This document shows positions 11,950 through 40,319 of a DNA stretch of 64,000 bases, piece after piece. The position numbers were made by a program, and so were the translations under genes. Each line of letters starts with the position of its first letter. The first letter of the stretch is position 1. This stretch comes from a virus. Location of the stretch: the IMG/VR virus record IMGVR_UViG_3300025018_000101, positions 32,001-96,000 of that record; one strand, 5' to 3'. A model generated the notes under the pieces. The model saw nothing but the letters and a program-made list of their open reading frames with translations, made no database searches and had not been told where the DNA came from.

Positions 11950-11979
11950 TTGCCGCCAGGACGCGCTTGCGTGTATGCT
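11950..11979 (+). promoter_or_regulatory. sigma70-like promoter for terminase
   Basis: TTGCCG-18 nt-TATGCT. Confidence 0.5.
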
Positions 11980-12011
11980 CCGGTAGCGACGCAGGGGTCG
12001 AGGAGGTGTTG

Positions 12012-21000: not shown

Positions 21001-21378
21001 CTTCATGGCCTGCTCGTTCTTGTCCGTCTGGATGTCCGCGACCACCCTCTGGTTCAACTTCAGCGCGGCGTACTCGATGAAGCCGACGCGCAGGGCCTCC
21101 ATGTAGGGCAGCGACATGACCTGCGCGAACAGCGCCACGGGGTCGCTCTCGTACGCCTGGCACCGGGCGCTCAGGCACTTGGCAAACCCCTTGTCGGGGT
21201 GGATGGCGAACGCGCCGGGGTCGACCTCCTGGTGGTAGGGGCACAGGCCGACCACCTTCCCCCCGACGCGGCGCCAACGGCCCTCGGCCGCGAAGTGCTG
21301 GAGCATCTGGCCCCAGAGATGAGACGACGTCTGCGCCCAGATGCTGCGGGCGTCCAGTGTCCGCTTGTTGTCTTCCAC
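18004..21378 (-). CDS. Primase-helicase (CHC2 Zn finger, TOPRIM, P-loop)
   Basis: GTG 21378 with GGAG RBS; CPYH...CLSARC, AVEGEMD, PDYDDGG, GPPQCGKS, LDEFE. Confidence 0.85.
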   Translation of the reverse strand: MEDNKRTLDARSIWAQTSSHLWGQMLQHFAAEGRWRRVGGKVVGLCPYHQEVDPGAFAIHPDKGFAKCLSARCQAYESDPVALFAQVMSLPYMEALRVGFIEYAALKLNQRVVADIQTDKNEQAMKEALMSAAVKTLTNAVNHPSDKEYAYCSKAVRWLTERGVDMSQLGRLPLGVLPTRRHLESAIEDKDMRARVRAYVNDRQGKEEKADLLPANPADVNQYVGGVVFPYHKGFGQIARFKLKSLEEGVEPIWIGPPTDGHGAFGMGLYRAVWGSKLAENCWAVEGEMDTISSYQALLGAHGVTDMAIIGLSGSGMPNLGFLAGHGVKRLVVVPDYDDGGTGFARLALERARGLKAGVFAWHRSPFLDQPGVDPDDVIHKLQRGTTFLSAIADTALLTDRAQWVFEAISMDLGRINSDARHDVEEIQEVLVRYHDTMRSQAVRDTVFELLRKDGLVPEPLLKSNKAARASEAEFLELVRAQLEAILTPVAYDGPKGYLYAKKTGALVEVLLTRRVDCVTTLAQQALNMTPFEWLRDIIGVPQWFSHVTKPDGTEANRPVMQQTLKADEYVYEATKQMCARAPDLSTMELKAQGLHFVDLRRTDPTVPEDERFRVLLVNGKRVYHAVLEPEDDLLVYEELDQPIIGNILCQPSGEPWDPFINLKALNEPTMVTLKEVFDRILALLIAGWSFSAVPEHHRLMATYLSAYIMYAGIASLFDTKAQVYLNGPPQCGKSSFLMGLLCGVQQPLVRLVYASRGWEDWSAAGIMQAHNRSTLLACLDEFESPERSQGSRKAKESQLLLEYLRGNINRGVEGVRGTSGGSAQTRKIDMPVAGAGVHPFTEEVDFSRWDIHQFKKKVGECPAPWQVILNMIGETGVRALARDISLTTRQMLPELYRNYHELRAARFFQTGFPPGIEPRYVDCLMPILAVLKASGVNVEAFFTEYLAYKSTLRAQYVAPDSDKLLDDILYTAAIRLSLDLNPGSKRTLASVLSDPGRREDLNTTSCGVYYLRSHEVVVFHCAQVLANLLQESARHRGAQDAKSLRIRLEQNETFMTLEEMKRLKLAAAVRPLVGVGRVTYNDIVAAKLSDLIGSEAFISGGEPDDLAHATDSTEEGEYSGLPM

Positions 21379-21433
21379 GTCCACTCCGGTTTTATGGGAA
21401 GCCGCCCCCGGGAGGTCGGCAGGGTAGTACGGC

Positions 21434-21934
21434 TCAGCCCAACGTCCTGGCGACCACCTCCTGAATGGCGCGCACGAAGGACAGACCGAGTTCGAGCGGG
21501 TCGAGCCCGCCAATGACACCGTCGACGCCGCGGAAGAGGAGTTCGACGGCCGCGGCGGCCACGCGTGCCCAACGCCGGGGCACGGCGCGCAACACCTCGA
21601 GCAGGAGCTGCGTCAGGGGAGACCGGTCCGGGTGGAGCCCGGAGAGGTCCTTGAGCAGGTCCAGGACAGAGACGTCCGGACGCTGCTGCTGCTGCCACAG
21701 GGCGTAGGCCGCAGCCAGGGAGACCAGTACCGCCGAAGCGGACGCCCAGACGAGCTCGGGCGTAGGGCCGGAGGCCACGTAGGTCTCCGCATCAGGGCCG
21801 CCGTACAGGCCGTCGGCCACCGCCCTGGCTTCATCCCCGTGTCCGAAGACCGAAGCTGCCAGGCCGTAGTGCCGTCGCCAGGCGACGGAGTCTCGATCGG
21901 GGCGCGCCTGCGCCCCCGGTTCCCGACCGTCCAT
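21434..21934 (-). CDS. Hypothetical protein
   Basis: GAGG RBS; part of the minus-strand operon. Confidence 0.6.
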   Translation of the reverse strand: MDGREPGAQARPDRDSVAWRRHYGLAASVFGHGDEARAVADGLYGGPDAETYVASGPTPELVWASASAVLVSLAAAYALWQQQQRPDVSVLDLLKDLSGLHPDRSPLTQLLLEVLRAVPRRWARVAAAAVELLFRGVDGVIGGLDPLELGLSFVRAIQEVVARTLG

Positions 21935-23628: not shown

Positions 23629-23657
23629 ACTGTACGCCTTGCTATGCGAGGTGTCCA
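23629..23657 (-). promoter_or_regulatory. sigma70-like promoter of the replication operon
   Basis: TGGACA-17 nt-TACAGT on the minus strand. Confidence 0.55.
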
Positions 23658-23701
23658 GGCAGCGCAAACAACCCCGGTGCGATTTTGAAAGGAGCGCGTG
23701 C

Positions 23702-25447
23702 ATGAGCCTCAGCGACCCCCTCGACCTGATGGGTCGGAGTAACGCGCACACCCACCCCATGTACGACTTCCTGACGGGCTTCATGCCGAGGAAGCTCAAG
23801 GACCTGTTCCGGTGGTGTGAATACCTCTACTACCGGAGCCCTCAGATCTTCCGCGCCGCTCAGCGCCTGGCGGACTACGTCATCACCGAGGTGATCTTCT
23901 CGACGGACAACGAGCGCGAGCAGGAGCAGTACGAGAACCTGCTGCTCGAGCACGTCGGCATCATGAGTGCGTTAAAGACCGCGGCGCGCGACCGCGTGAT
24001 CTACGGCAACGGCTTCTACTCGATGTTCTTCCCGAGCAAGAAGATGATTGCCTGCGCGGGGTGCTCTACGGAGTTCGACCTGACGAAGCTGGACTTCGAG
24101 TACGACGGCAAGAAGATGACGTTCGCGGTCATCTGCCCGAAGTGCGGCAAGAACACCAAGCACCCAGCCGAGTCCATCGTCGAGCGCAAGAGCTACGACA
24201 AGAGCGCCATCCGGGTCATCGCGTGGGACCCGAAGCTGATGGACATCGAGTACAACCCGGTGTCTGGAAAGAGCAGGTTCTTCTACAACATTCCTACCTC
24301 GGTCCGGACCGAAGTCGAGCGCAACAACCAGTGGTTCATCTCGCAGTTGCCGATCGGCTTCCTGCGCGCGGTGAGCTTGAACCAGGTGTTCGAGTTCGCC
24401 CCCGGCGCCATCTTCCAGCTCAAGGAGGAGGGCCCGTCGGGGATGCAGTCCCAGTGGGGCATCCCGCCGCTGGCCAGCGTGATGAAGGACTTCTTCTACG
24501 CCGGCGTGCTCCGCAAGGCGAACGAGGCCATCGCGCTCGAGTACACGGTGCCATTCCGGGTCCTGTCCCCTGACGTCGGTGGCGGCGGCGGCTCTCTCAT
24601 CCAGTACTTGAACATCACGAACTGGAAAGAGAACACGATGAGCGAGGTCCGCAAGTGGCGCCGGGACCCGCTCCACATGATGTTCGCTCCCGTCCCTCTA
24701 CTGGTCACCCAGATGGGCGGCCAGGCCCGCTCCCTGCTAGCGACCCCGGAGGTGGAGCAGGCGGAGAACAACATCATGGCGGGCATTGGCATCCCGCGCG
24801 AGTTCGTCTACGGCGGCCTGCAGTTCACCGGGTCGTCGGTGACGCTGCGGATGCTCGAGAACCAGCTCCTGAACGACCGCCGGGATCTGATCCGCCTGGC
24901 GAAGTGGGTCACGGATCGGTGCCGTCGGCACATGGGGTGGGGGCACGTCGGGGTGGACCTGAAGAGCTTCCGCTTCGTCGACGACGTGGCGCAGAAGGGC
25001 ATGCTGTTGCAGGCGGACGCCCAGTACCAGCTCATGTCGAAGGGCACGGTGGCGGAGCTCTTCGACCTGGACCTCAAGCGCGAGGGCGAGCGCAAGGTCC
25101 AGGAGCAGATCGACGACATGGCGCTGCAGACGCGCATGGCCCAGAAGCAGCAGGAGACGACGGGGACGCTGCTGCAGCAGACCCGGGATGAGGCCTCGCA
25201 GATGGCCCAGCAGCAGGCTGGCCAGGGCCAGGCGTTGCCTCCCGAGGACGCCTTCATCACCATGGCACAGCAGATGGTCCCGCAGCTCCTGGCCATGGAG
25301 GAGGGTGACCGCCAGAGCCAGATGTACGGCTTGCGCGGCCAGTCCCTCGTGCTCTACTCCCTGGTGACCGAGATGCTCCAGGAGCAGGACCGCGCGGCGA
25401 AGCAGCAGGTCAGTAGCCAGGTGAAACAGGAGGCCGTGGCGCAATGA
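23702..25447 (+). CDS. Portal protein with Zn-ribbon insertion
   Basis: AAGGAG RBS; portal-like DRVIYGNGFY, WGIPPL, IMAGIGIPREFV; CAGC...CPKC insert; Gln-rich C-terminus. Confidence 0.75.
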   Translation: MSLSDPLDLMGRSNAHTHPMYDFLTGFMPRKLKDLFRWCEYLYYRSPQIFRAAQRLADYVITEVIFSTDNEREQEQYENLLLEHVGIMSALKTAARDRVIYGNGFYSMFFPSKKMIACAGCSTEFDLTKLDFEYDGKKMTFAVICPKCGKNTKHPAESIVERKSYDKSAIRVIAWDPKLMDIEYNPVSGKSRFFYNIPTSVRTEVERNNQWFISQLPIGFLRAVSLNQVFEFAPGAIFQLKEEGPSGMQSQWGIPPLASVMKDFFYAGVLRKANEAIALEYTVPFRVLSPDVGGGGGSLIQYLNITNWKENTMSEVRKWRRDPLHMMFAPVPLLVTQMGGQARSLLATPEVEQAENNIMAGIGIPREFVYGGLQFTGSSVTLRMLENQLLNDRRDLIRLAKWVTDRCRRHMGWGHVGVDLKSFRFVDDVAQKGMLLQADAQYQLMSKGTVAELFDLDLKREGERKVQEQIDDMALQTRMAQKQQETTGTLLQQTRDEASQMAQQQAGQGQALPPEDAFITMAQQMVPQLLAMEEGDRQSQMYGLRGQSLVLYSLVTEMLQEQDRAAKQQVSSQVKQEAVAQ

Positions 25448-25824
25448 GCAGCAACCACCACCGGTTCAACGAGTCCTTCAAGTGGTCCGAGCACATGGCG
25501 ACCGCCGGCTACAACGGCAACCCGTCCATTCCTCCGGACCACCCGCTGGCCAGGCTCTTCTCCGACGGGGCGCCCTCGGCTCCAGTCGGACCCGGGTTCG
25601 ACCCGAAGACGTCCAAGGTGCGCTTCCGGCGCTTCGACCTGGACGACGAGGAGGAGCGCGAGGACCTGGAGAACATCCTGACGGACTGCATGCGCGGCCA
25701 GGGCAAGTTCCTCGACAGCCAGACCCTACACACCACCCCTGACGGCCGTGCGATCGTCACGATCTGCTGGGTCGAGTGGGAGGTCCAAACGGCGAAACGG
25801 CCCAAGGGTCTGGACGACGTCTGA
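25444..25824 (+). CDS. Hypothetical protein
   Basis: ATGA overlap with portal; AGGAGG RBS. Confidence 0.7.
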   Translation: MSSNHHRFNESFKWSEHMATAGYNGNPSIPPDHPLARLFSDGAPSAPVGPGFDPKTSKVRFRRFDLDDEEEREDLENILTDCMRGQGKFLDSQTLHTTPDGRAIVTICWVEWEVQTAKRPKGLDDV

Positions 25825-25840
25825 GGAGAGGCAGGTCACG

Positions 25841-28261
25841 ATGGCACTGAAACCCGACGTCGTTCTTCAGCCGCACCAGGAGTCGGCACGCACGCGGTTT
25901 CGCGCCAAGCCTGGCTTGCTGATCAACCACGGCCTGGGCTCCGGCAAGACCTTGACGTCGATGGCGCTGGCGGAGGATGTCGGCGGCCGCGCCCTCGTCG
26001 TCGTGCCAGCGTCGCTGCAGGCGAACTACCGGGACCAGTTGCAGAAGTTCGTCACCGAGGACCGACACGGCGACTACGACATCGTCTCCTACGACAAGTT
26101 CAGGGCGGACCCCGAGTCCTATCTCGACAAGGAGCCGTCCGTCCTGATCGTCGATGAGGTCCACCGCCTGCGCAATCCGGGTAAGAACCGGGACGCCATC
26201 GAGATGGCCCGCAAGCGCATCCCGCGCATGGTAGGGATGACGGCCTCGCTCGCCTCGAACACGCCGCTCGAGTCCGTACCCCTGATCAACCTCGTCGCCG
26301 GCAAGAGCGTCATCTCGCAGGCTAAGTTCAAGAGGGATCACATCGGCGAGATCGAGGTGAAGCCTGGCCTCGCGGGCCGACTGCTCGGCGCCGAGTCGGG
26401 CTATGTGCCGGTCATCATCAACCGCAAGGGCCTGCACGACAAGCTCGCCCCCTTCGTCGACAGGTACACGGGCAGCGACGCGTACCGGAAGTCGCTGCCT
26501 GGTCGCGTCGACGAGGTCGTCGAAGTGCCCATGTCGGCCCACCAGAAGGACGTCTACGAGGGCATCATCAACACGAGCCCGGCGCTGGCGTACAAGATCC
26601 GGCAGAACCTCCCGCCGAGCAAGAAGGAGCTCAAGGACCTCAACGCCTTCCAGACCGCGGCGCGTCAGGTCATGAACGCCACCGAGCCGTACGTCGACGT
26701 CCGCGAGGGCCAGGACCTGCCCTCGATGTCGCCGAAGCTCCAGCGCGTCGCGGACGACCTGGCGGCACTGGCGAAGGACGACCCCAACTTCCGCGCCGTC
26801 GTCTACAGCAACTTCCTCGATGCGGGTACGCGCCCCGTGCTGCGCGCCACCGAGACGGCCTCCGGCCTGTACGAGGGCTCGGTGTCCCAGAAGGAGCGCC
26901 AGAGGGTCCTCGCGCGCTACCACTCCGGCGAGGCCCCCGTCCTCGGGCTCAGCCCGGCGGGTGGCGAGGGTCTCGACCTGAAGGGCACCAAGATGATGGC
27001 GGTGCTCGAGAGTCACTGGAACCCCGAGGTCACCAACCAGGCCATCGGCCGCGCCATCCGCTACAAGTCCCACGATCACCTCCCCGAGGACGAGCGCTCT
27101 GTCATCGTCCGCCAGTATCGGTCGGTCTACCCCGACTCGTGGCGCCACCGCATCTCAGGCCGCCCCACGTCCATGGACGAGTACATCGCCACTCGCGCCC
27201 AGGAGAAGGCCACCTTCAACGAGGACTTCATGAACGCACTCGACTCCAAGCCGCGCTCCCGCGGCGTCAAAGCCGCCTTCAAGGTCGCGGGCATCCCCGA
27301 GATGGCCGCGCGCCTGATGGACAGCGACCTCGTCAACTCCAACAGCCTCGGCTACTCCCTGCTCCGCGCCGCCCCCGGCGCCGCCCTCAGCGTCGCCAGC
27401 CTCGGCCTCGGAGCTGGCGTGGCCAGCAGTGAGGACCCCAACGCCCCGCCCCAGTACCGAGCCCAGGGCATGCTCGGCGCGGGCATCGGCATGGGACTGG
27501 CGGGCGCCTTCGCCCCCGCCGTGCTCAAGTCCATCGCGCTCCGTCCAAAGGGACTGATGCTGAACGCAGAGGGCATCGCGGCCGCCCCGCTCGGCGCCCG
27601 GGGCCGGGCGCTCCACCTGGACCCGGCGTTCCTCGACGCGCCGATTCACCCGTCGCACCCCCTGTCGTGGCGCGGGATGCCCTCGGTGGCGGAAGAGCTG
27701 GAGATGAACGGTGGCCGGACCGACAGGCTCCCTGTGACCGGGAACACGGTGCTCGACCTCATGGGCCGGCTCCAGGGTGACCGGCCTCACATCGACGGCC
27801 GCCTGCCCTGGACGGGCGAGAACGCCTTCGACGGCGTCAGGCCGTGGGAGGGGGAGCGCCTCCCTGCCGGCGCTCTGGGCGCAGACCTGGGCGACTACGG
27901 CGCGGAGATCCCTGTGCTCGGCACGTACGGCGACAGGCGCACGATGTCCGCCGCCTACAACACCTCGCGGCGCCAGACCGAAGCGGCCGTCGACGCCGCA
28001 CGAGCCGCCATCGCGAACGCTCCCGAGGGCGCTGACCTGGCCTCGCTCCAGGACGCCCTGGACGAGGCGGAGAGCTCCCACACCCCAGGGGTCTGGTCCT
28101 CGGACGCTACGAAGGCCGTCATGGAGACCAACCCAGAGACGGCCCTCGGCGTGGGCGGCCAACTCGCGAGCCTGGCTGCCAGTGGCCTCGCAGGCATCGG
28201 CGGCTGGTTCGGCGGCAAGGCCCTCGGCCGAGCCCGGGCTGAGCGAGGCGAAGGGACCTAA
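25841..28261 (+). CDS. SNF2-like SF2 helicase fused to a Gly-rich/hydrophobic C-terminal extension
   Basis: LQPHQ, HGLGSGKT, VDEVH, GGEGLDLK, QAIGRAIRYKSH; then KAAFKVAG and glycine-zipper-like segments. Confidence 0.85.
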   Translation: MALKPDVVLQPHQESARTRFRAKPGLLINHGLGSGKTLTSMALAEDVGGRALVVVPASLQANYRDQLQKFVTEDRHGDYDIVSYDKFRADPESYLDKEPSVLIVDEVHRLRNPGKNRDAIEMARKRIPRMVGMTASLASNTPLESVPLINLVAGKSVISQAKFKRDHIGEIEVKPGLAGRLLGAESGYVPVIINRKGLHDKLAPFVDRYTGSDAYRKSLPGRVDEVVEVPMSAHQKDVYEGIINTSPALAYKIRQNLPPSKKELKDLNAFQTAARQVMNATEPYVDVREGQDLPSMSPKLQRVADDLAALAKDDPNFRAVVYSNFLDAGTRPVLRATETASGLYEGSVSQKERQRVLARYHSGEAPVLGLSPAGGEGLDLKGTKMMAVLESHWNPEVTNQAIGRAIRYKSHDHLPEDERSVIVRQYRSVYPDSWRHRISGRPTSMDEYIATRAQEKATFNEDFMNALDSKPRSRGVKAAFKVAGIPEMAARLMDSDLVNSNSLGYSLLRAAPGAALSVASLGLGAGVASSEDPNAPPQYRAQGMLGAGIGMGLAGAFAPAVLKSIALRPKGLMLNAEGIAAAPLGARGRALHLDPAFLDAPIHPSHPLSWRGMPSVAEELEMNGGRTDRLPVTGNTVLDLMGRLQGDRPHIDGRLPWTGENAFDGVRPWEGERLPAGALGADLGDYGAEIPVLGTYGDRRTMSAAYNTSRRQTEAAVDAARAAIANAPEGADLASLQDALDEAESSHTPGVWSSDATKAVMETNPETALGVGGQLASLAASGLAGIGGWFGGKALGRARAERGEGT

Positions 28262-30437: not shown

Positions 30438-33400
30438 ATGGGCGACTGGGGATTCACGAAGCTGGCCGAAGAGGTGCGACGGCTTGTCCAGGAGACGCAG
30501 GCCGAGACTCCCGAGGGGGAGGGGCCGGCGTTCCACGGTAAGATCAGCGACATCAAGGGGCTGCGCTCCGTGCTGGCCCCGGCGTCCGAGCGACGCGATG
30601 CCATCCGCAAGCAGGCCGTGGCCTCGATGTACAACGTCTTCCCGATCAAGGGGACGAACTACGACGTCACCGTGCACGACGTCAGGGTCGACGCGGCCGA
30701 CTACACCCTCGAGGACATGAAGGAGGCGGTGCTGGCCCGCAAGTCGCTGACCGAGCCCATCAAGGCCACGGTCCGCATCACCGACAAGGCCTCCGGCAGG
30801 GTACTGGACGAGCAGAAGAAGACGCTCGGCCACCTGCCGTTCATGACGGACCACCACACCTTCATCCTCGACGGGAACCCGTACGCCCTCTCGAGTCAGT
30901 TGCGAGTCAAGCCGGGGGTGTACACCCGGATGCGCAGCAACGGGGACCTCGAGAGCGCGTTCAACCTGGGGCGCGGGGCGAACTTCCGCCTGTTCATGGA
31001 CCCGATGCGCGGCGTCTTCCACATCCAGTACGGGGCGACCAAGACGCCCCTGTACCCGATCCTGGTCGCACTCGGCGTGCAGGAGTCGGTCATCGCGCAG
31101 GCGTGGGGCAAGGACCTGGCGGACGCCAACCGCGCGGCATCCCGCGGCAAGGAGCGCCTCGCCCTGGCGACGCTCTACGCCAAGGTCGTCCCGATGTCGA
31201 AGCGCTCGAAGGCCCCCAGCGAGGCTGACATGGTGGCGGCCATCCGGGAGGCGTATGGCAACACCGTGCTCGACCCGGCGGTGACCAAGGCCACGCTGTC
31301 CATGGCGGTCTCCTCGGTGACGCCCCTGGCCCTGCTGGCCGCCAGCAAGAAGATCCTCGGCGTCTACAACGAGACCGAGCAGGAGGACGACCGCGACGAC
31401 CTCCAGTTCAAGACGCTGCACACCCCGGACACCTTCGTCAAGGAGCGCATCGAGAAGGATGCCGCTCGGGGTGTCCTGCTGCGGAGCCGCTTCAAGCTCA
31501 ACCGCACCGCCGACCCGAAGGTGAAGGACGTCCTGCCTTCGGCGCCGTTCTCCGGAGCGCTTCGGAGCCTCATCACCCAGAGCTCCCTGGCGCAGGCCCC
31601 CAGCCAGATCAACCCTGTCGAGCTCATCGATGGCGCGGTCAAGGTCACCAGCCTCGGCGAGGGCGGCATCTCCTCGCTGCGCTCGGTCCCCGAGTCCACG
31701 AGGTCGCAGCACGCCAGTCACCTCGGCATGCTCGATCCGGTGCGCACTGCAGAGTGCTACGACGACCAGACGGAGGTCTACACGCGCGCGGGGTGGGTGC
31801 GCTGGCCTGACGTCGATGAGAACGCGGAGTTCGCCTGCCTCATCGACGGCCGCCTGGCGTTCCATCCGCCCCTGCGCCTGATCTCCGCGCCCTACGACGG
31901 TGAACTGCTGTGCGTGACGACGAGTCGGCGCGTCGGGTACGCGGTTACGCCCAACCACCGCCTCCACGTTCGGCCCACGGACCTGCGCGGCAATGCGTCG
32001 TGGCGCATTGTCACCGCGGACGTAGCACACACGCGCGCGGGGTGGCAGTACCAGATCGGACACGAGCCGCTGGAGGGGGACGGGACTACGGAGTTCCACC
32101 TTCCGGCCGTCACGCAGACGCTGGTCTCGGATGACGCCGCCGGGAGTCGGGCTACGCTCGGCACACGCCGCCTGGCGACACAGGCAGCGCCGCCGATCCC
32201 CCTCGAAGTGTGGGCGGAGTTCCTCGGGTGGTACATCTCCGGGGGCAACACGGTGTACAAAAGTGCGGGGATGGATTCTCGGTACGCGGTCAGGATCACG
32301 CAGCGTGAGAGCGCCAACCCCGCCGAGTGCTCGCGGATTGAGGCCCTGCTCGACGCCCTCCCGTGGACGTGGTCGAAGTACGCCGACGCGTACTCCATTC
32401 CTTCCAAGCAGCTCGCTGAGTACTGCCGCCGCTTCGGCCGGTCGGTGGACAAGTTCCTCCCGTCAGAAGTCTTCACCTGGCCGGTCGCTGCCCGTGAGCG
32501 CCTCCTGTCGGCGCTCATGGCCGGTGACGGGCGCACGTACTCCAAGCGCAAGGTCGGGCACAGTTACACGGAGGCGGTATACAGTACCGTGAGTCCCCAG
32601 CTCGCACGGGATGTCGAGGCGCTCGCCATAGGCCTCGGGAGCGCCGTGAGCATCACGACGCAAGTCGACAACCGGGAGGAGCGGTACCGGGACGTCTACG
32701 ACGTCAGGGTCATCCAGGCGAAGGTAGCACCGGTCCGGACACGCAGGCACATGACGCGGCCTGACGGGAGTCGCGGCTACGTGGCGAACGCGGCGTTCAC
32801 GACGCTCGACTATCACGGCACGGTGTACTGCGCTACGGTACCGGGAGGGCTCCTGTACGTCCGCCGGGGTACGCCCAGCGGCCACTGGAACGGGAACTCG
32901 GGCGCGGTCGGCGTCGACCTGCGGTCGGCGTCCTACCTGCACGTCGACGAGCGCGGCAACATGTACACGCCGCTCATCAACGTCCGCACGAAGAAGGTGG
33001 AGCTCGTCTCGGCCGCGACGATGAGCAAGAGCAAGGTCGCGTTCGAGGGGACGGACCTGAAGAAGACGCGGGTCCCGGCGATGGACGGCGGGCAGGTCCG
33101 CGACGTCCTGTCGAAGGACGTCGCCTTCATGCTGCCGTCCACCCTGTCGAAGCACTCCCCGTCGAGCTCGCTCGTGCCGATGATGGGGGGCTCCCAGGGC
33201 AACCGCCTCATCATGGGCAGCAAGCATCAGACCCAGGCGGTGCCCCTGAAGCACCGCCAGGCGCCGCTCGTCCAGGTGGCCGCCGGTGATGGCACGTCCA
33301 TGGAGGCCAAGTTCGCCGAGTGGCACATCCCCAAGGCCCTCGAGGCGGGCACCGTCCAGAAGATCGACATGAGCCGCGGCCGCATCATCATCGCGCCCAA

Positions 33401-36149
33401 GAGCGGCGGAGACCCCGTGGCCTACGAGTTCGCCAACAACTACCCACTGGCCAGCAAGACCCGACTCCACCATGACGTCACGCTCAAGCCCGGCGATACG
33501 GTGACGAAGGGCCAGGTCCTGGCCGACAGCAACTTCACCCAGGGCGGGGTGATGGCCAACGGCCGGAACCTCCACACGGCCTACATGGCCTACCACGGCC
33601 TGAACAGCAACGACGCCTTCGTCATCTCCGAGAGCGCCTCGGAACTCCTGACGTCCGAGCACATGTACCGAGAGACCCTGAGCCTGCAGCGCGGGGTCGA
33701 GACGAGCGTCGAGATCCACAAGCGCCACTTCGGCTCCCGCTTCCCCGCCACCGCCTATGGCAACCTGGACGCGGACGGGGTGGTCAAGAGCGGCACCGTC
33801 ATCAAGACCGGCGACCTCATCGTCGCCGCCGTGGTCAAGCGGACGCCCTCGGCCGAGGACGCCATGCTCGGCCGCCTGAACAAGTCCCTCGTCAAGCCCT
33901 ACGGCGACGCATCGATCACCTGGACCCACGGCGGCGACGGCAGGGTCACTGAGGTCCACAAGTCGAAGAGCTCGGTCACCGTTCTGGTGTATACTGAGGA
34001 AAAGATGAAGGTCGGGGACAAGCTCTCTGGCAGGTTCGGCAACAAGGGGGTCGTCTCGAAGATCATCCCCGACGACCAGATGCCACGGGATGAGTCCGGC
34101 AGGCCTATCGAGTTGATCGCGACGTCCGCGGGCGTGGTCTCGCGCATCAACCCTGCCCAGGTCCTCGAGCGGGCGTATGGCAAGGTGGCGCTCAAGACGG
34201 GGCAGCCGATCCTGGTCGACCAGTACCCGAAGCACAGCATGGTGGAGCACGCCACCGCGCTGCTGAAGGAGCACGGCGTCAAGGACAAGGAGACGCTCTA
34301 CGACCCCATCTCGGGCAGGTCGGTGCCAGGCATCGCGGTCGGGCCGACGTTCCAGATGAAGATGTTCAAGTCCACGGACACGAACTTCTCGACGCGGTCC
34401 ACGGGGTCGTACGACGTCAACGAGCAGCCAACCAAGGGCGGCGAGGCGGGCGCCAAGAGCATCGGCCGTATGGACTTTTACGCCCTGGTGGGTCACGGCG
34501 CGACGAACCTGCTCAAGGAGAGCGCGTCGATCAAGGGCCAGCGCAACGACGAGTACTGGAAGCGGGTCCAGATGGGACTGCCCGAGGGCCCCGTGAAGAC
34601 CCCCTTCGCCTGGAGCAAGTTCCAGTCGATGTTGACTGGCGCCGGCATCAACGTGACGAAGAAGGGCAACACCCTGACCCTGGCTCCGCTGACGGACAAG
34701 GACGTGATGGCGCTGGCGCCACGAGCCATCCAGAACGCTGGTGTCGTCAAGCCGAAGGTGACTCGCGAGGGCACGCAGGTGGTCCCGGAGACGGGTGGCC
34801 TCTTCGACCCGGTGGCGACAGGCGGCGTGTCCGGAACGAAGTGGAGCCGCATCGACCTCGTCGAGCCTGTGGTGAACCCCATCTTCGAGGACACGGTCAA
34901 GACGCTGACCGGGATGGGAGGCAAGGAGTTTGACGCCTTCCAGCACGGAGCTGGCGGCCACGAGATGCGCAAGCGCTTGAACGCCATCGATCTGGACGAC
35001 AAGAGCGCGGAGCTGGAGGCGTCCATCAGGAGGAACCTGCGCGGGGGTCCCGGCAGGGAGGCGCTGGTCGACCGCGACGTCAAGACGCTCAAGTCGGTCC
35101 GGGCGCTGAAGAAGATGGGCATGCAGGCCGGGGATGCCTACGTCATCTCCACGGTGCCGGTCGTGCCTCCTGTCATGCGCGGGGTGGTGTCGGGGACGGG
35201 CGGGGCGGTGATGGTGTCGGACGCGAACTTCCTCTACAAGGACCTGCTGCTGACCAACAACGCCATCCGTGACATGCCGCAGGAGCTCCGGGCCATCGAG
35301 GACATGAGCGACCATCGCCGCAACCTGTCCGCCGCAGTCGCGGCCGTCGTGGGCACCGGCGACCCCATCAACGACAAGACGAAGGCGCGGGCCGTGCGCG
35401 GGTTCATGCAGCAGGCCGCCGGCATCCGGAGTCCGAAAGAGGGCTACTTCCAGAGCCGGCTCATCAAGCGGCGCCAGGACCTGTCGGGTCGCGGCACCAT
35501 CGCTCCGGACCCGAGCCTGGGCATTGACTCGGTCGGTCTGCCGGAAGAGATGATGTGGACGCAGTTCAAGCCGTTCGTCATCAAGAACCTGGTCAAGCGG
35601 GGCTACTCAACCAACGACGCCCTCCGCATGGTCGACGAGAAGCACCCGACGGCGAAGATCGAGCTCCTTGAGGAGGCCAAGCGGCGCCCCATCCTGATGA
35701 ACCGGGCCCCGACGCTGCACCGCTACAACATGGTCGCGGCCTACGCCACGCCGGTCGACGGCAAGACCATCTTCATCAGCCCCTTCTACGAGAAGTTGGG
35801 CAACGCGGACTACGATGGCGACGCCATGCAGGTCCACGTCCCGGTCACGGACAAGGGCATCGCGGACGCCAGGCGCATGACCATCAGCGCCCTGGCCATG
35901 CACGACGGGAGCAAAGGCGTCGCCATCGCAACTCCGCAGCACGAGGCGATCATCGGCACGTACATGGCGACCAAGCCGATGCTGCCCGGCCCTGCGCGCG
36001 CCTTCAAGACGCGTGGCGATGCGCTGGCCGCCTACGGGCGGGGCGAGATCAAGATCAACTCCCCCATCACGGTGGATAAGACAACCCAGACGGCCATCGA
36101 GGCCCCGGTGACCGTCTTCCCCGCCGCGGGGACCGGCAAAGCGCACTGA
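30438..36149 (+). CDS. rpoBC: Phage RNA polymerase: beta fused to N-terminal beta', intein-containing
   Basis: beta motifs SQLRVKPGVY, GNRLIMGSKHQTQAVPL, GDKLSGRFGNKGVVS; beta' motifs GGLFD, DLSGRGTI, NRAPTLHR, catalytic NADYDGD. Confidence 0.93.
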   Translation: MGDWGFTKLAEEVRRLVQETQAETPEGEGPAFHGKISDIKGLRSVLAPASERRDAIRKQAVASMYNVFPIKGTNYDVTVHDVRVDAADYTLEDMKEAVLARKSLTEPIKATVRITDKASGRVLDEQKKTLGHLPFMTDHHTFILDGNPYALSSQLRVKPGVYTRMRSNGDLESAFNLGRGANFRLFMDPMRGVFHIQYGATKTPLYPILVALGVQESVIAQAWGKDLADANRAASRGKERLALATLYAKVVPMSKRSKAPSEADMVAAIREAYGNTVLDPAVTKATLSMAVSSVTPLALLAASKKILGVYNETEQEDDRDDLQFKTLHTPDTFVKERIEKDAARGVLLRSRFKLNRTADPKVKDVLPSAPFSGALRSLITQSSLAQAPSQINPVELIDGAVKVTSLGEGGISSLRSVPESTRSQHASHLGMLDPVRTAECYDDQTEVYTRAGWVRWPDVDENAEFACLIDGRLAFHPPLRLISAPYDGELLCVTTSRRVGYAVTPNHRLHVRPTDLRGNASWRIVTADVAHTRAGWQYQIGHEPLEGDGTTEFHLPAVTQTLVSDDAAGSRATLGTRRLATQAAPPIPLEVWAEFLGWYISGGNTVYKSAGMDSRYAVRITQRESANPAECSRIEALLDALPWTWSKYADAYSIPSKQLAEYCRRFGRSVDKFLPSEVFTWPVAARERLLSALMAGDGRTYSKRKVGHSYTEAVYSTVSPQLARDVEALAIGLGSAVSITTQVDNREERYRDVYDVRVIQAKVAPVRTRRHMTRPDGSRGYVANAAFTTLDYHGTVYCATVPGGLLYVRRGTPSGHWNGNSGAVGVDLRSASYLHVDERGNMYTPLINVRTKKVELVSAATMSKSKVAFEGTDLKKTRVPAMDGGQVRDVLSKDVAFMLPSTLSKHSPSSSLVPMMGGSQGNRLIMGSKHQTQAVPLKHRQAPLVQVAAGDGTSMEAKFAEWHIPKALEAGTVQKIDMSRGRIIIAPKSGGDPVAYEFANNYPLASKTRLHHDVTLKPGDTVTKGQVLADSNFTQGGVMANGRNLHTAYMAYHGLNSNDAFVISESASELLTSEHMYRETLSLQRGVETSVEIHKRHFGSRFPATAYGNLDADGVVKSGTVIKTGDLIVAAVVKRTPSAEDAMLGRLNKSLVKPYGDASITWTHGGDGRVTEVHKSKSSVTVLVYTEEKMKVGDKLSGRFGNKGVVSKIIPDDQMPRDESGRPIELIATSAGVVSRINPAQVLERAYGKVALKTGQPILVDQYPKHSMVEHATALLKEHGVKDKETLYDPISGRSVPGIAVGPTFQMKMFKSTDTNFSTRSTGSYDVNEQPTKGGEAGAKSIGRMDFYALVGHGATNLLKESASIKGQRNDEYWKRVQMGLPEGPVKTPFAWSKFQSMLTGAGINVTKKGNTLTLAPLTDKDVMALAPRAIQNAGVVKPKVTREGTQVVPETGGLFDPVATGGVSGTKWSRIDLVEPVVNPIFEDTVKTLTGMGGKEFDAFQHGAGGHEMRKRLNAIDLDDKSAELEASIRRNLRGGPGREALVDRDVKTLKSVRALKKMGMQAGDAYVISTVPVVPPVMRGVVSGTGGAVMVSDANFLYKDLLLTNNAIRDMPQELRAIEDMSDHRRNLSAAVAAVVGTGDPINDKTKARAVRGFMQQAAGIRSPKEGYFQSRLIKRRQDLSGRGTIAPDPSLGIDSVGLPEEMMWTQFKPFVIKNLVKRGYSTNDALRMVDEKHPTAKIELLEEAKRRPILMNRAPTLHRYNMVAAYATPVDGKTIFISPFYEKLGNADYDGDAMQVHVPVTDKGIADARRMTISALAMHDGSKGVAIATPQHEAIIGTYMATKPMLPGPARAFKTRGDALAAYGRGEIKINSPITVDKTTQTAIEAPVTVFPAAGTGKAH
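31755..32897 (+). mobile_element. Intein (381 aa) with LAGLIDADG-type endonuclease domain
   Basis: Starts CYDDQTEVYT; block B VTPNHRL; FLGWYISGG and LMAGDG; VYCATVP...WNGN followed by Ser. Removal restores DPVRTAE-SGAVG, equivalent to the beta TPEG motif. Confidence 0.9.
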
Positions 36150-36164
36150 CCCCTGGAGGTTCGC

Positions 36165-37040
36165 ATGAACGGTGTCAACGACTGGATCGCACGCGTGGAG
36201 GCCGGCCGCCAGGCGCACCCCTCGGTGCTCATGAACCGGCCTCAGGGTCGCCGCGAGGACCCCGTCACATGGGGGGCCTCAACGCACTACGGCGACAACG
36301 CCCTGGGACGCAACGGCATGGGCGCGCGCAAGCAGGCGGCCGCGGAGGAAGCGGAGGAACCGAGCCGCTGGGCCGGCGCCTGGCGCGGGCTCAAGGGCGG
36401 CCTCCGTGGCGGCGCTCTCGCGGGGGGGCTCGCTGGCGCGGGCTCGGGTCTCGTCCACAGCATCGCCGAAGGAGACGCGGGGAGTGCTCCCGCCTACGCA
36501 CTGTTCGGTGGCCTCGGCAGCGGCATCGTTGGGGGTCTCGCAGGCATGGGATACGGGGCCATCCTGGGCGCGGGCTACCCGGACCCTGCCGCGGAGAAGG
36601 ACCTGCCGTGGTACAGGAGCCCCGCGGTCGCGGGTGCCGTGCTTGGGACGGGCATCGGAACCGCTCGGGGCGTGAAAGGGCTGCTCGACAAGAAGCATGA
36701 CTGGGGGGCCGCTGCCGAGGGCGCAGCACTGTCCGGCGCGATCGCCGCCGGCGCTGGCTTGGGCGTCAGTAAGGCCAACGAGCGCTACCTCGCCCAGCAG
36801 GCGGAGAAGTCTGCCTTCGTGGGCGCGGTCGCCCGCAAGCTCGTCTCCAGCCTCGGCGGGAGGGCCCTGGGGACTGCGGGCGCTCAGGGGGCCGCTGCCG
36901 TCGGCGAGGGCCTGGCGACCAAGGCGGCCCCGAGCCTGCTCCGCAAAGCCACCGCCCCCGTGCTCTCGGCCGCGTCGCTCGGCTCGTCCATGGCGACGAT
37001 GCGCCCGACGGCTGCCACCTTCGCTCCGGTGAAGTACTGA
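36165..37040 (+). CDS. Glycine-zipper, K-x-A-containing putative internal virion protein
   Basis: GGAGG RBS; repeated GxxxG hydrophobic segments; KQAA, KSAF. Confidence 0.7.
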   Translation: MNGVNDWIARVEAGRQAHPSVLMNRPQGRREDPVTWGASTHYGDNALGRNGMGARKQAAAEEAEEPSRWAGAWRGLKGGLRGGALAGGLAGAGSGLVHSIAEGDAGSAPAYALFGGLGSGIVGGLAGMGYGAILGAGYPDPAAEKDLPWYRSPAVAGAVLGTGIGTARGVKGLLDKKHDWGAAAEGAALSGAIAAGAGLGVSKANERYLAQQAEKSAFVGAVARKLVSSLGGRALGTAGAQGAAAVGEGLATKAAPSLLRKATAPVLSAASLGSSMATMRPTAATFAPVKY

Positions 37041-38863
37041 TGGCCACTCGCGACAACAACAAGCACACTACGCTCGGCCGTCTGCTCATCAACGACTCGC
37101 TGCCGCCGGAGCTCCGTACGGATGAGCAGCTCGGCAAGAAACAGATCAACCGCATCCTGTCCAGCGTGGCCAGGAACACGCCCGAGCAGTACGGCTCGGT
37201 CGCCCAGAACGTGAAGCGGTCGGGCGACTACGTTGCCACGCTGGCCGGGCTCAGCGTCGGCCTTGAGGACGTCGCCCCCCAGCGTGCACGACGCGACCCG
37301 ATCGTCAAAGACGCCCTCGGCCGCTTGCGCAAGGCCACGACGGACGCCCAACGGAGAGTCATCCTGTCGGAGGCGCAGGGCAAGATGATGAAGATCACGC
37401 CCGACCACCCATCGGACATGGCGCTGATGGCAGCCGCCGGCGGCCGCGGCTCCACGGCGCAGTTGATGCGCACGGTGGCCGCACCTGTCGCGGCCGCGGA
37501 CAAGAACGGGGCGCCCCTGCCGTGGCTGATTCAGCGGTCGTACTCCGAGGGGCTCAGACCGGATGAGTCCTGGGTGGCCGGGATCGAATCCCGCAACCTC
37601 GCCATCCAGACGAAGGAGTCCGTGCAGGAGCCCGGCGCGTTCGGCAAGGTCTTGATCGCCAACATGAGCGACATGGTCATCTCGTCGGAAGACTGCGGTA
37701 CCCGCAACGGCACCATCATGCACGTCTCCGACCCGCAGCTCGTCGACCGCGTCCTGGCCGCGGCCGCCGGTCCTGTTGCCGCCGGGACCATCGTCACCGC
37801 GCAGGTCGTCCGAGACCTGCGCAAGGCCGACGTCAAGGACGTCAAGGCCAGGACCCCCCTGACGTGCGAGATGGGCTCCGGCGTGTGCTCGGTATGTATG
37901 GGCGCCGACGAGTGGGGCAAATTGCCCCGTCTGAACACGAACGTCGGTGTCCGCGCCGCCCAGGCCATGAGCGAGCCCCTGACGCAGTTCGCCCTCTCCG
38001 CCAAGCACGGGGCGGGGACACTGAGTGGCGCCGGTAGGCCCTCCATGCAGGGCCTGACGGGCTTGAAGAACTTCCTCGACTTCCCGAAGTCGTTCTCTGA
38101 CCGAGCGATTCTGACGAGCCGGACCGGCGTGGTCACCCGCGTGGCCAAAGCCCCCCAGGGCGGGTGGTACGTCGACGTCGACCGCGTCGAGCACTACCTG
38201 TCGCCGCGGACGCCTCCGACGGTTCATCAGGGGCAGCACGTGGACGTCGGCGACGTACTGTCCGAGGGCGTCCCGACGCCAGACGACGTCGTACGGCTCA
38301 AGGATATGGGGGCAGGCCGGCAGCACGTCGCCGACGTCGTGCACGGCATCTACGCCGCCCAGGGGGCGAACCTTGACAAACGCCACATGGAGCTGCTCGC
38401 CAAGAGCCACCTGAACTGGGTGCGCGTAGTCGACGACCCCGACGGCGACCTGCTGCCGGGCGAGATCGTGCCTTACTCCTCGACGATGAGCCGCTACGGC
38501 GAGAGCAACACCGAGATGGCCGTGCAGGCCGCCACGGGCAAGGTCCTGTCCGTGCCAGCGCTTCAGTACACGGCAGGCACCACCCTGACGCCGCAGATCG
38601 TGGCGTCGCTCAAGGGTGGCGGTGTGTCGAAAGTGCGTGTATACAATGGGAACCTCAGGACTCGTCCTGTCGTCAAGTCCCTTACGCGGAGCCCGCTGCT
38701 CGATGCGCGCTGGATGAGGCGGCTCGGGCACCGGTACCTGAAGAAGTCTCTTGTCGAGGGAGCGGCTGCTGGCGATGAATCATCGATCCACGACACAGAC
38801 CCTATCGCCGCCTACGCTTACGGGGCGGAGTTCGGGGACAATCCCTCTGGCGTTGGCTATTGA
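37040..38863 (+). CDS. rpoC: RNA polymerase beta' C-terminal subunit
   Basis: TTLGRLLIN, GGRGS, SYSEGL, bridge-helix region ending EDCGT, Zn site C...CSVC, trigger loop AAQAMSEPLTQFALSAKHGAG. Confidence 0.9.
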   Translation: MATRDNNKHTTLGRLLINDSLPPELRTDEQLGKKQINRILSSVARNTPEQYGSVAQNVKRSGDYVATLAGLSVGLEDVAPQRARRDPIVKDALGRLRKATTDAQRRVILSEAQGKMMKITPDHPSDMALMAAAGGRGSTAQLMRTVAAPVAAADKNGAPLPWLIQRSYSEGLRPDESWVAGIESRNLAIQTKESVQEPGAFGKVLIANMSDMVISSEDCGTRNGTIMHVSDPQLVDRVLAAAAGPVAAGTIVTAQVVRDLRKADVKDVKARTPLTCEMGSGVCSVCMGADEWGKLPRLNTNVGVRAAQAMSEPLTQFALSAKHGAGTLSGAGRPSMQGLTGLKNFLDFPKSFSDRAILTSRTGVVTRVAKAPQGGWYVDVDRVEHYLSPRTPPTVHQGQHVDVGDVLSEGVPTPDDVVRLKDMGAGRQHVADVVHGIYAAQGANLDKRHMELLAKSHLNWVRVVDDPDGDLLPGEIVPYSSTMSRYGESNTEMAVQAATGKVLSVPALQYTAGTTLTPQIVASLKGGGVSKVRVYNGNLRTRPVVKSLTRSPLLDARWMRRLGHRYLKKSLVEGAAAGDESSIHDTDPIAAYAYGAEFGDNPSGVGY

Positions 38864-40319
38864 CCGTAGCCGCGGCAAGGAGGCAGGGATCGCGGACATG
38901 ATGGCGCGGGTCAAGACCCTCGCGCAGGGGACGCGCCCCATGGAGCTGGTGGACCGGGCACAGTCGGCCCTCCGCGCGCTACCGGCGGGCAAGCAGCTCT
39001 TCGGCCGTGGTGCCCTCAGCCAGTTCATCCCAAAGTCGCAGCAGGTAGTCTCGCGCCTGGGCGCGTTCGACGACCACCTCTATGAAGCCAAGAAGATCGT
39101 GGCCGACTTCGAGAGGGCCGGCGTCCGGCCCCCGCCCGGACTGATCGGGCCCAACAACGAGGTGGACCTCGACCTGCTCCGCAAGCTGACCCCCTCCATG
39201 CCCGGCCTCGGCATCGGGGAGCGCATCACCCGGGCGGTGACGGGTGGACCGAAGGTCGACAAGCTGAAGGCAACTGCCACCGAGGCCGAGGCGCGCCTCG
39301 CTCAGTTCTCCAAGGCCGGGCCCCGAGACGCGTCCGAGGCCGCCACGCGCACGCACGCCGCGCAGTTGCGCCAGCTCGAGGCAGAGGCCGCGCAGGCACG
39401 CCAGCTCCACGAGATCAACGCCAGCGGCGTCTCGATGTCGCCGCAAGCCCTCTCGCAAATGCAGGCGATTCGGGCAGCCGGCCACGACATCTCGCCGCAG
39501 GAGTTCCAGCAGCTCGCCCGGGTCCGAGGCGACATCCGGTCGGGCGGCCGCGAGGCCAAAGACATGGTCATCGGCGAGGCGCCGCTGGAGGTCACGCGCC
39601 AGCGGTACATCCAGGGCGGCCTCATCGGTCCAGGCGGAGTACTGCTCGGGGACATGGCGCCGAACGTCGCTCTCCAACGGGTGGCGAAGAGGACGTGGGA
39701 CGCGGCCAAGGCGGGAGACCTCGCGACCTTCGAGAAGGAGCTCAAACCCACTCTCGGCCGTGGCCTCGGCTACGCCCTCGGCGCCGGGTTCACGTACGGC
39801 ATGATCCCGGGCAGCGCCAAAGACACCTACGACATGGCCCAGGAGTCAGGGGAGAGCCCTGGCAGGGCCGTGGCGGCCAACCTCGCGGGCTCGGTGCTGA
39901 ACGTGGTCTCGTCGCCGCTCGGCATGGGACAGATGCTGCTCTACGACCCGGCCATGAAGCTCGTCAATCGCGGCTTCGGCACCAAGAGCTACGACGAGAT
40001 GTCTCAGGCCGTGGCGAACCGGGCCGTGGCGCAGCAAGCGACTACCCGGGCGTCTGCGGCCACGTCCGCGTTTCCGGGGCGCGCCCGCGCGGCTGCACCA
40101 CCCGCAACCGGGGCCCCTATGGCGCCGCAGGGCGCTGCGCCTACGCCCCCTATGCCCCTCCTTCGCGCACCCGGTGGTGCCGCCCCGGCCTATCCAGCGA
40201 CACCCGCACCCGCCGTACCCCGGCCGTCGCTACCCACACCGCCTGTACTCGCGCCGCAGCGGCCGCCCACGTTGAGCGGCCCTCGGCCTGTTATTGTACC
40301 GCCACGTCAACCCATGTAG
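38853..40319 (+). CDS. Putative internal virion protein with Pro-rich C-terminus
   Basis: Start uncertain (TTG 38853 or ATG 38898); KEAG near the N-terminus. Confidence 0.65.
   Translation: MAIDRSRGKEAGIADMMARVKTLAQGTRPMELVDRAQSALRALPAGKQLFGRGALSQFIPKSQQVVSRLGAFDDHLYEAKKIVADFERAGVRPPPGLIGPNNEVDLDLLRKLTPSMPGLGIGERITRAVTGGPKVDKLKATATEAEARLAQFSKAGPRDASEAATRTHAAQLRQLEAEAAQARQLHEINASGVSMSPQALSQMQAIRAAGHDISPQEFQQLARVRGDIRSGGREAKDMVIGEAPLEVTRQRYIQGGLIGPGGVLLGDMAPNVALQRVAKRTWDAAKAGDLATFEKELKPTLGRGLGYALGAGFTYGMIPGSAKDTYDMAQESGESPGRAVAANLAGSVLNVVSSPLGMGQMLLYDPAMKLVNRGFGTKSYDEMSQAVANRAVAQQATTRASAATSAFPGRARAAAPPATGAPMAPQGAAPTPPMPLLRAPGGAAPAYPATPAPAVPRPSLPTPPVLAPQRPPTLSGPRPVIVPPRQPM

Follow-up and report, generated by a model that had tools for sequence, protein, structure and literature searches.

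A two-chain phage RNA polymerase, with beta and the N-terminal half of beta' in one chain and the rest of beta' in the other: one member of a family that includes the cultured phage Arash

How a viral RNA polymerase (RNAP) is built, and where it might act, when its beta subunit runs into the first half of beta' and the second half of beta' lies in a gene of its own is the question raised by positions 30438 to 38863 of the DNA analysed here, a stretch of 64,000 nucleotides (the window) that represents bases 32001-96000 of one 155,236-bp IMG/VR virus record (IMGVR_UViG_3300025018_000101; 68% G+C; 88% complete by CheckV). What is known of multisubunit RNAPs in phages comes, to our knowledge, almost entirely from enzymes of the phiKZ/AR9 type, which are fragmented and lack sigma. 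A preliminary description of the window had recognised here a streamlined enzyme with beta fused to half of beta', the beta' split and the zinc domain of the clamp deleted. Domain and family searches were made with Pfam, NCBIfam and PHROG, rpoB and rpoC of E. coli (NC_000913) served as the reference, and positions are window coordinates unless marked as genome. Judged by its sequences, the fusion of beta to the N-terminal half of beta' (beta'N) with a separate C-terminal half (beta'C) is a real arrangement that is common to hundreds of related phages, the cultured phage Arash (GenBank OQ632216) among them. The features of the two chains are as follows.

30438..36149, plus strand: gene for RNAP beta and the N-terminal half of beta' (1903-aa precursor, ~1522 aa after predicted splicing; translation, Pfam, NCBIfam)
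31755..32897, plus strand: intein with a putative LAGLIDADG homing-endonuclease domain (aa 440-820, 381 aa)
34029..34049, plus strand: beta active-site motif GRFGNKG, GRHGNKG in E. coli (aa 1198)
34641..34658, plus strand: end of the beta part, GAGINV, which continues directly into beta' (alignment with E. coli beta and beta')
34794..34859, plus strand: Cys-free 22-residue link in place of the N-terminal Zn-binding domain of beta' (alignment; 41 of 41 members alike)
35802..35822, plus strand: catalytic loop NADYDGD, Mg-binding (aa 1789)
37040..38863, plus strand: gene for the C-terminal half of beta' (607 aa; Rpb1_5; rpoC model positions 545-1075)

Positions 30438-36149 form a single stop-free frame of 1903 aa, preceded by a Shine-Dalgarno (SD)-like GGGAG 8 nt 5' of the ATG, in which Pfam placed Rpb2_6 (aa 1033-1334) and then Rpb1_1 and Rpb1_2 up to aa 1815. 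The protein scored 301 bits with the NCBIfam model of rpoB and 198 bits with that of rpoC (model positions 155-536), and its best match in that collection was to the models of cellular fused beta/beta' proteins (321 bits); E-values of 1e-46 to 1e-95 against the RNAP models exclude a chance match. In the alignment with E. coli, in which both window chains were 25.5% identical to rpoB plus rpoC over 2046 columns, the beta part ending in GINV (aa 1401-1406) was joined to approximately residue 15 of beta', a joint that falls short of the E. coli termini by only 18 residues (beta 1339 to beta' 14), adds no linker and keeps a constant length across the family alignment. Frame, profiles and alignment thus bear out the claim that the C-terminal motif of beta runs straight into the N-terminal motifs of beta', and the bacterial scores, set against 96 and 56 bits with the jumbo-phage PHROGs, agree with the remark that the motifs stay recognisably bacterial. 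Chain 1 reaches ~100 residues beyond the catalytic loop, which is present as NADYDGD where it had been read and whose three Asp are invariant in an alignment of 41 family members.

The earlier observation that GGLFD (aa 1453) is followed by WSRIDL (aa 1469) with no Cys4 domain between them also held: the 32 residues of E. coli beta' 64-95, the Cys4 zinc-binding domain, are deleted, the connecting link is devoid of Cys, and the whole beta' part of chain 1 (aa 1408-1903) contains no Cys. A link of 22 residues without Cys occupies this place in all 41 aligned members. The reported replacement of His by Phe in GRFGNKG is correct for this protein, where GDKLSGRFGNKG aligned with E. coli beta 1063-1074 and the replaced residue corresponds by alignment count to beta His1070, but it is not a trait of the family, since the position is F in 16 members, Y in 16, H in 4, V in 3, E in 1 and L in 1, and Arash keeps the His (GLHGNKG). 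Both Lys of the GDK...GNKG barrel motif, together with the Arg and the last Gly of GRFGNKG, are invariant in the 41 members. "Streamlined" proved only mildly apt for an enzyme with ~1026 aa of beta and ~1103 aa of beta' in total: the zinc domain is lost, yet the other missing blocks of at least 12 aa are largely beta 933-1044 and beta' 965-1199, regions that are presumably lineage-specific insertions of E. coli, and smaller gaps occur at beta' 149-180 and at other places in beta. Chain 1 retains the rudder as well as the two docking sites for sigma, the clamp helices and the flap-tip helix of beta, and the clamp-helix and flap-tip segments align with their E. coli counterparts.

The remainder of beta' is encoded by the 607-aa chain 2, with the bridge helix beginning at nt 37589 and the trigger loop at nt 37970-38008, in accord with the earlier assignment of both elements to a separate protein. 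This beta'C (P0003) has exactly four Cys (219, 276, 283 and 286), which aligned to the second zinc site of E. coli (C814, C888, C895 and C898), and it keeps the trigger-loop His. Its identity was 45% to the counterpart in L010, a close relative, and 30% to gp216 of Arash. A locus search with a single beta'C sequence returned one locus, and relatives were therefore taken from protein-database searches.

Two elements inside the 30438-38863 interval had been overlooked when all of it was read as RNAP: although both RNAP genes are there, the interval also holds the intein (aa 440-820) and an unrelated open reading frame (ORF) of 291 aa. The intein interrupts a conserved motif of beta exactly between Glu and Ser, TAE/S in the window protein and DPIRTPE/S, without a gap, in intein-free relatives (the slash marks the insertion point). 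It begins with Cys440, carries the block B sequence TPNH at aa 504 and ends with Asn820, followed by Ser821. Its LAGLIDADG_3 score, 22.5 bits, equals the Pfam cut-off exactly, and a phmmer search of the intein against sequences in the PDB gave no match. The insertion site in the beta motif is also occupied by an intein in P0075, another member of the family.

Other family members carry insertions elsewhere in the fused chain. Inteins inside the motif GDKL/SGRxGNKG, where GDKL is followed by C...N and then by S or C, were seen in P0018, P0051, P0055, P0101, P0119 and others, and insertions of ~480-545 aa directly after NADYDGD in P0050, P0069, P0085, P0110 and others, some with Pfam intein domains. 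As far as such sequence matches go, this family of fused RNAPs is a hot spot for inteins, at the TPE/S site and at the GDKxxGRxGNKG site, and some of the proteins hold more than one. Many of the proteins P0020-P0117 have in addition a non-intein insertion of 125-283 aa at a fixed beta site (corresponding to P0007 aa 577-594). Precomputed Pfam matches at this insertion were to PF18823, PF00719 (which we take to be the pyrophosphatase family) and GNAT acetyltransferase families, and one protein with an insertion there is named 'RNAP beta subunit/predicted GNAT family acetyltransferase' by the Joint Genome Institute (JGI).

The second overlooked element lies between the two polymerase genes.

36165..37040, plus strand: intervening Gly/Ala-rich ORF (P0002; 291 aa; no family match)

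Its stop codon overlaps the start of the beta'C gene (TGATG). Each gene of this region (the two RNAP genes, the intervening ORF and the downstream gene) has an SD-like sequence before its start, and the G+C content at third codon positions (GC3) of the genes in the RNAP region, 0.87-0.92, indicates coding selection. The 291-aa product had no Pfam or PHROG match. L010 and L011, the two close relatives compared, have ORFs of 260 and 384 aa in this place, and no similarity was detectable between these and the 291-aa ORF. The idea that it encodes a conserved extra RNAP subunit was rejected for this reason.

To what extent the window is exceptional can be read from its relatives. A query spanning the joint (aa 1200-1750) retrieved at least 120 metagenomic proteins at E <1e-162, with full coverage and 47-57% identity, all of them with Rpb2 and Rpb1 domains and located on contigs of up to 188 kb; these homologues are typically 1440-1620 aa long and reach 2465 aa where inteins or other insertions are present. 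The P0001 cluster, grouped at an identity of 90% or more, is present on 5 contigs, and on the L010 and L011 contigs (158 and 177 kb) the order is again fused gene, small ORF, beta'C of ~600 aa and the same downstream genes. Arash gp206 (1525 aa, no intein) was 34% identical to the window protein over aa 42-1879, and its gp216 has 606 aa, close in length to chain 2. The Vibrio phages D69, D148 and D181 also match the fused RNAP gene. The uniqueness implied by the preliminary description is therefore not sustained, given at least 120 metagenomic proteins and Arash with the same architecture and the zinc-domain loss already reported for the non-virion RNAP (nvRNAP) of AR9 (PMC7618050). No description of the fused architecture was found in the searchable literature, which covers few subscription journals; the architecture appears to be new to that literature, whereas the zinc-domain loss has the AR9 precedent. 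In the annotations of D181 (OZ196140, 949-8341) and D148 the match covers four 'hypothetical protein' genes and a free-standing homing endonuclease gene, while in D69 it is ~900 nt shorter and lies under one annotated gene.

With beta'C as the query, phmmer returned 1093 cluster representatives at E up to 1e-30, a count that may include cellular beta', and architectures were classified among the best 150 of these. Stand-alone beta'C proteins of ~600 aa made up 108 of the 150 (49 of them with large insertions), fully fused single chains of about 2.0-2.6 thousand aa with every Rpb2 and Rpb1 domain 18, and beta'C with a C-terminal extension 10; five had a long N-terminal extension (P0171 is a complete unsplit beta', and P0176 looks like a truncated fused chain), and one (P0173, 826 aa) is a fusion with a Nudix domain at its N-terminus. 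In a FastTree phylogeny of the beta'C region with 150 tips and with E. coli beta' as the single outgroup, the fused and unsplit forms branch off first, and the window, L010, L011 and Arash fall in an almost purely split clade of 117 of the 150 tips (support 0.98), in which the sister group of the window is the class with the C-terminal extension. Because the fused and unsplit forms are basal, the split of beta' looks derived and may have arisen once, a result that the single outgroup keeps tentative. The loss of the zinc domain is already seen in those fully fused relatives for which a motif search located the link.

Arash is the closest point of comparison among described phages and agrees with the window in the beta-beta'N fusion, the separate beta'C of ~600 aa, the Cys-free link, a sigma of ~234 aa (gp10), an SNF2 helicase near the RNAP genes (gp217 in Arash, beside beta'C) and the portal gene upstream. 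Its catalytic loop reads AADYDGD, sharing ADYDGD with NADYDGD of the window. It differs in having no intein, nine genes on both strands between the RNAP genes and a stand-alone sigma. In the accessible part of the Arash paper the proteins are annotated 'beta' and 'beta prime', with no remark there on fusion, split or zinc-domain loss and no enzymology (PMC10585845). The phiKZ/AR9 enzymes are likewise phage-encoded, dispense with alpha and omega and have beta' split in the same inter-domain region (by PHROG coordinates), and their virion enzyme is injected; an SNF2-type helicase is linked to RNAP genes of this type (PMC7824862). As had been pointed out, however, the layout is different from these four- or five-piece enzymes, whose beta comes in 2-3 pieces and is never joined to beta', whereas the beta of the window is one continuous segment joined to beta'N. 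Furthermore, phiKZ/AR9 phages have two paralogous enzyme sets and the genome studied here a single one, and their enzymes work without sigma, with promoter recognition by gp68/gp226 (PMC7598289, PMC7824862), while this genome encodes a sigma-70-family factor. By sequence they also lie much further from the bacterial enzymes, with 56-96 bits for the window proteins against the jumbo-phage PHROGs beside 198-301 bits against the bacterial models.

The cellular fused RpoBC proteins resemble chain 1 in the joint, where the C-terminus of beta continues into the N-terminus of beta', and the likeness is limited to that joint, for they hold the whole of beta' in one chain of ~2900 aa, keep the zinc domain and use alpha and omega. 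The NCBIfam entries PRK09603 and PRK14844 are presumably the Helicobacter- and Wolbachia-type RpoBC, and an engineered beta-beta' fusion of E. coli also exists. Cyanobacterial and plastid rpoC1/rpoC2 break beta' within a few tens of residues of the window's break (the rpoC1 model was matched to position 553 of 619, and residue 128 of the window beta'C aligned with rpoC2 position 122), but only the approximate site is common: these enzymes have a separate beta, the zinc domain, alpha and omega, and a very large insertion in rpoC2, and their split is of independent origin. Fully fused relatives such as P0160 (2077 aa) have the zinc-domain-less link and the Rpb2 and Rpb1 domains in order, with beta' unbroken. 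The mReC phages, the RNAP-encoding Caudovirales of Weinheimer and Aylward 2020 (97 contigs), are also uncultured tailed phages from IMG/VR and metagenomes, and they encode bacterial-like beta and beta' outside the cellular clades (PMC7481178); in the supplementary rows available for them beta and beta' are distinct proteins, each 900-1560 aa long, and the text speaks of fusion only for crAss-like phages (PMC7481178).

Whether the two chains could act as a holoenzyme depends on what else the genome encodes. The RNAP genes belong to a conserved module and lie on one strand between the portal gene and the protease and major capsid genes; the surrounding genes, and an ORF upstream of the window, are as follows.

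L004:4045-6549 (genome 20045-22549), ~9.5-10 kb upstream of the window: 834-aa ORF with Nudix and sigma-70-family domains
11967-13673: terminase
18004-21519, minus strand: primase
23639..25447, plus strand: portal protein (tblastn with Arash gp204, 29% identity, E 7e-72)
25748..28261, plus strand: SNF2-type helicase (Pfam SNF2-rel_dom and Helicase_C; PHROG DNA helicase; tblastn with Arash gp217, 34% identity, E 5e-76)
38898..40319, plus strand: 473-aa downstream protein (GC3 0.85; AAGGAGG before the ATG; homology)
41541-44099: Arash gp218-like structural protein
50002-51975: head (maturation) protease
54566-55507: major capsid protein

Only one RNAP set was found in the genome by tblastn and PF00562. 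Searches of the 155-kb record for alpha and omega with PF01000, PF01193 and PF01192 gave nothing at E up to 10, with positive controls. Inside the window no alpha, omega or sigma gene was seen, as stated in the preliminary description; that statement does not extend to the genome, where the search it had proposed for alpha- and sigma-like genes again gave no alpha but did locate a sigma-70-family domain upstream. The last 234 aa of the 834-aa ORF were 32% identical (E 1e-39) to the full-length Arash gp10, and fifty homologues were found, most of them 231-247 aa long and apparently stand-alone. The family profile matched solved SigA/RpoD/RpoS chains at 3e-12, and an AlphaFold2 (AF2) model of the domain (predicted local distance difference test, pLDDT, 87) matched sigma chains over ~250 columns. 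By profile and modelled fold, the phage encodes a sigma-70-family factor of ~235 aa as the C-terminal domain of a Nudix-containing polyprotein. For the top sigma homologue and for the fused-RNAP protein P0116 the longest contig is equal in length (169,387 bp), which suggests that they come from one genome. The second sigma of Arash, gp196, had no homologue in this genome. When beta'N (aa 1440-1903) and sigma were modelled as a complex, the score was 0.56 (best control 0.00), with at least 47% of contacts shared between runs and a partner pLDDT of at least 68; the mark for this score is reached by 58 of 80 solved complexes and by 2 of 110 mismatches, and at 0.60 or below lie only 7 of the 80 together with both of the mismatches.

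The Nudix (RppH-like) domain upstream of sigma in the 834-aa ORF recurs in P0173, where it is fused to beta'C, which suggests that a Nudix hydrolase travels with the fused-RNAP transcription machinery. As for the ends of the record, GGCAAC/GGCTAC-type hexamer repeats make up both (genome bases 1-60 and 155141-155236), and a further copy of the first 50 bases lies 95 nt before the end, so the contig may close on itself inside a repeat-rich gene and the genome may be nearly complete at ~155 kb.

From these elements the following enzyme can be proposed. The 381-aa intein would splice out of the conserved beta motif of the 1903-aa precursor to leave chain 1 of ~1522 aa, and chain 2 (607 aa) would provide the bridge helix, the second zinc site and the trigger loop. 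The covalent contact between beta and beta' plausibly takes over the assembly role of the cellular alpha dimer and omega, and assembly without alpha would follow from it. The phage sigma would direct this two-chain core as a holoenzyme, and the two chains and sigma would be packed into the capsid and injected, early genes then being transcribed independently of the host polymerase. Packaging and injection are proposed from the particle proteome of Arash, where gp206 led all proteins in spectra (3516, above the major capsid protein) with 100% peptide coverage, and gp216 (1210), sigma gp10 (467, 100% coverage) and the helicase gp217 (1148) were also detected (PMC10585845). That the two chains form a real, functional enzyme is very probable, and the whole scheme, an alpha- and omega-less core that joins the phage sigma, is packed into the capsid and is injected for early transcription, strikes us as probable. 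Taken individually, sigma dependence is favoured only slightly over its opposite, and the same holds for delivery in the virion. An extended version, an injected kit in which sigma comes from the Nudix polyprotein, the SNF2 helicase is included and maturation is gated by splicing, is put forward tentatively, as somewhat doubtful.

Several observations weigh against this proposal. Within the enzyme, the bridge helix aligns but is strongly diverged and the E. coli trigger-loop Arg is not kept; within the intein, Gly819 precedes the terminal Asn in place of the penultimate His (the intein of P0075 likewise ends in GN, as do the GDKL-site inteins for which the ends were seen), and the first LAGLIDADG motif lacks its acidic residue. 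PF04542 and PF04545 (Pfam Sigma70_r2 and Sigma70_r4) were negative in the whole record and Sigma70_r3 fell just below its cut-off on the 834-aa ORF, so that the assignment of sigma rests on family profile and fold; the complex prediction lends it weak support, since sigma and beta' are a solved textbook pair and the pass may reflect likeness only. At 88% completeness of the record, the lack of alpha, omega and a second RNAP set is to be taken with some reserve. Identity between the Arash and window proteins is no more than 30-34%, and the Arash particle list also includes ribonucleotide reductases and RNA ligases, for which its authors allow intracellular carry-over (PMC10585845); even in Arash, packaging thus falls short of proof. 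Sigma might, alternatively, serve to redirect the polymerase of the host. A real enzyme that is not delivered by the virion and serves as a middle or late transcriptase, with the phage sigma retargeting the host polymerase, would accord with this, with the hint of carry-over given by obvious metabolic enzymes in the Arash particles, with the position of the RNAP genes in a same-strand block with late head genes, which makes late expression probable, and with the single RNAP set, unlike the separate virion and non-virion enzymes of phiKZ. A packaged enzyme would, however, need late expression inside the head module just as well, and the Arash spectra place gp206 above the major capsid protein, with sigma and helicase alongside. 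The occurrence of sigma as a polyprotein tail and of beta'C fused to a head-module neighbour (in sister lineages) or to Nudix (P0173) fits co-packaging with proteolytic maturation. We consider this middle/late alternative unlikely.

The fusion itself might be undone after translation, if the long ORF were a polyprotein cut near the beta/beta' joint to yield mature beta, beta'N and beta'C as separate chains, as in the jumbo-phage enzymes. The genome does hold a polyprotein-style gene (Nudix plus sigma) and a head maturation protease, and fusions of beta'C with a neighbouring protein are known in relatives; but the joint is short, direct, free of linker and conserved in length, no K-x-A cleavage-type site occurs between GAGINV and GGLFD, and cellular fused beta/beta' proteins are a recognised NCBIfam class (PRK09603), all of which makes such cleavage improbable. 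Least credible is the reading of fusion and split as an assembly or frameshift artefact, or as a captured bacterial rpoBC in decay. Although the source is a single metagenomic contig, and the divergent bridge helix and missing zinc domain might be taken as signs of decay, the presence of the P0001 cluster on 5 contigs together with the conserved gene order excludes the sequencing artefact that the preliminary description had allowed for, hundreds of relatives share reading frames, catalytic residues and gene order, the GC3 values and the SD sequence at each start speak for selection on coding, and Arash gp206 is covered in full by particle peptides; we give this reading almost no weight. The preferred reading is thus still the injected two-chain, sigma-directed enzyme.

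The fused family is the opposite of the phiKZ/AR9 enzymes, with near-bacterial sequences, beta joined to beta', and no alpha, omega or clamp zinc domain, while still carrying docking sites for a phage-encoded sigma. The injected kit of the extended version, if real, would have no forerunner among multisubunit virion RNAPs in its dependence on sigma, and no known bacterial-type holoenzyme would be smaller. Because the family has a cultured member, Arash, which grows on Salmonella, direct tests are possible of assembly without alpha, of the need for the zinc domain in sigma-dependent initiation and of an injected sigma holoenzyme. In addition, subunit boundaries shift along the tree, which provides a natural series for the evolution of RNAP subunit boundaries. 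The window itself is one more member of a family whose sequences are already public, set apart by its intein.

Downstream of beta'C, the gene at 38898-40319 was preferred to two minus-strand ORFs at 39.1-39.8 kb, which were rejected on the frame-specific GC3 profile and homology, and the notion that the ORF after beta'C corresponds to the Arash helicase gp217 was likewise rejected, as the gp217 homologue lies upstream at 25748-28261. The 473-aa product matched the C-terminal extension of P0124 with 31% identity over 191 aa, and in the sister clade (P0124-P0130 and P0132; 938-1096 aa) a homologue of it is joined to the end of beta'C. This fusion may point, in Rosetta-stone fashion, to a physical link or may reflect polyprotein maturation.

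Two further observations concern the window at large. The octamer GGYAYAAG occurs 10 times in it (11924-49262), all on the minus strand, against 2.8 copies expected; across the genome the minus strand carries 15 of the 16 copies, and five fall in the 2 kb just upstream of the RNAP gene. In approximately half of the copies the consensus lengthens to GGYAYAAGnnnTTGnc, and the preceding unit often ends in a TCTTTTAG-like sequence. The motif is a candidate phage promoter, and nothing ties it to the fused RNAP. In the head module, the surroundings of two adjacent ORFs of 252 aa (48328-49086 and 49244-50002) are identical over at least 90 nt where they hold the GGYAYAAG copies of 48346 and 49262, and the pair looks like a recent tandem duplication.

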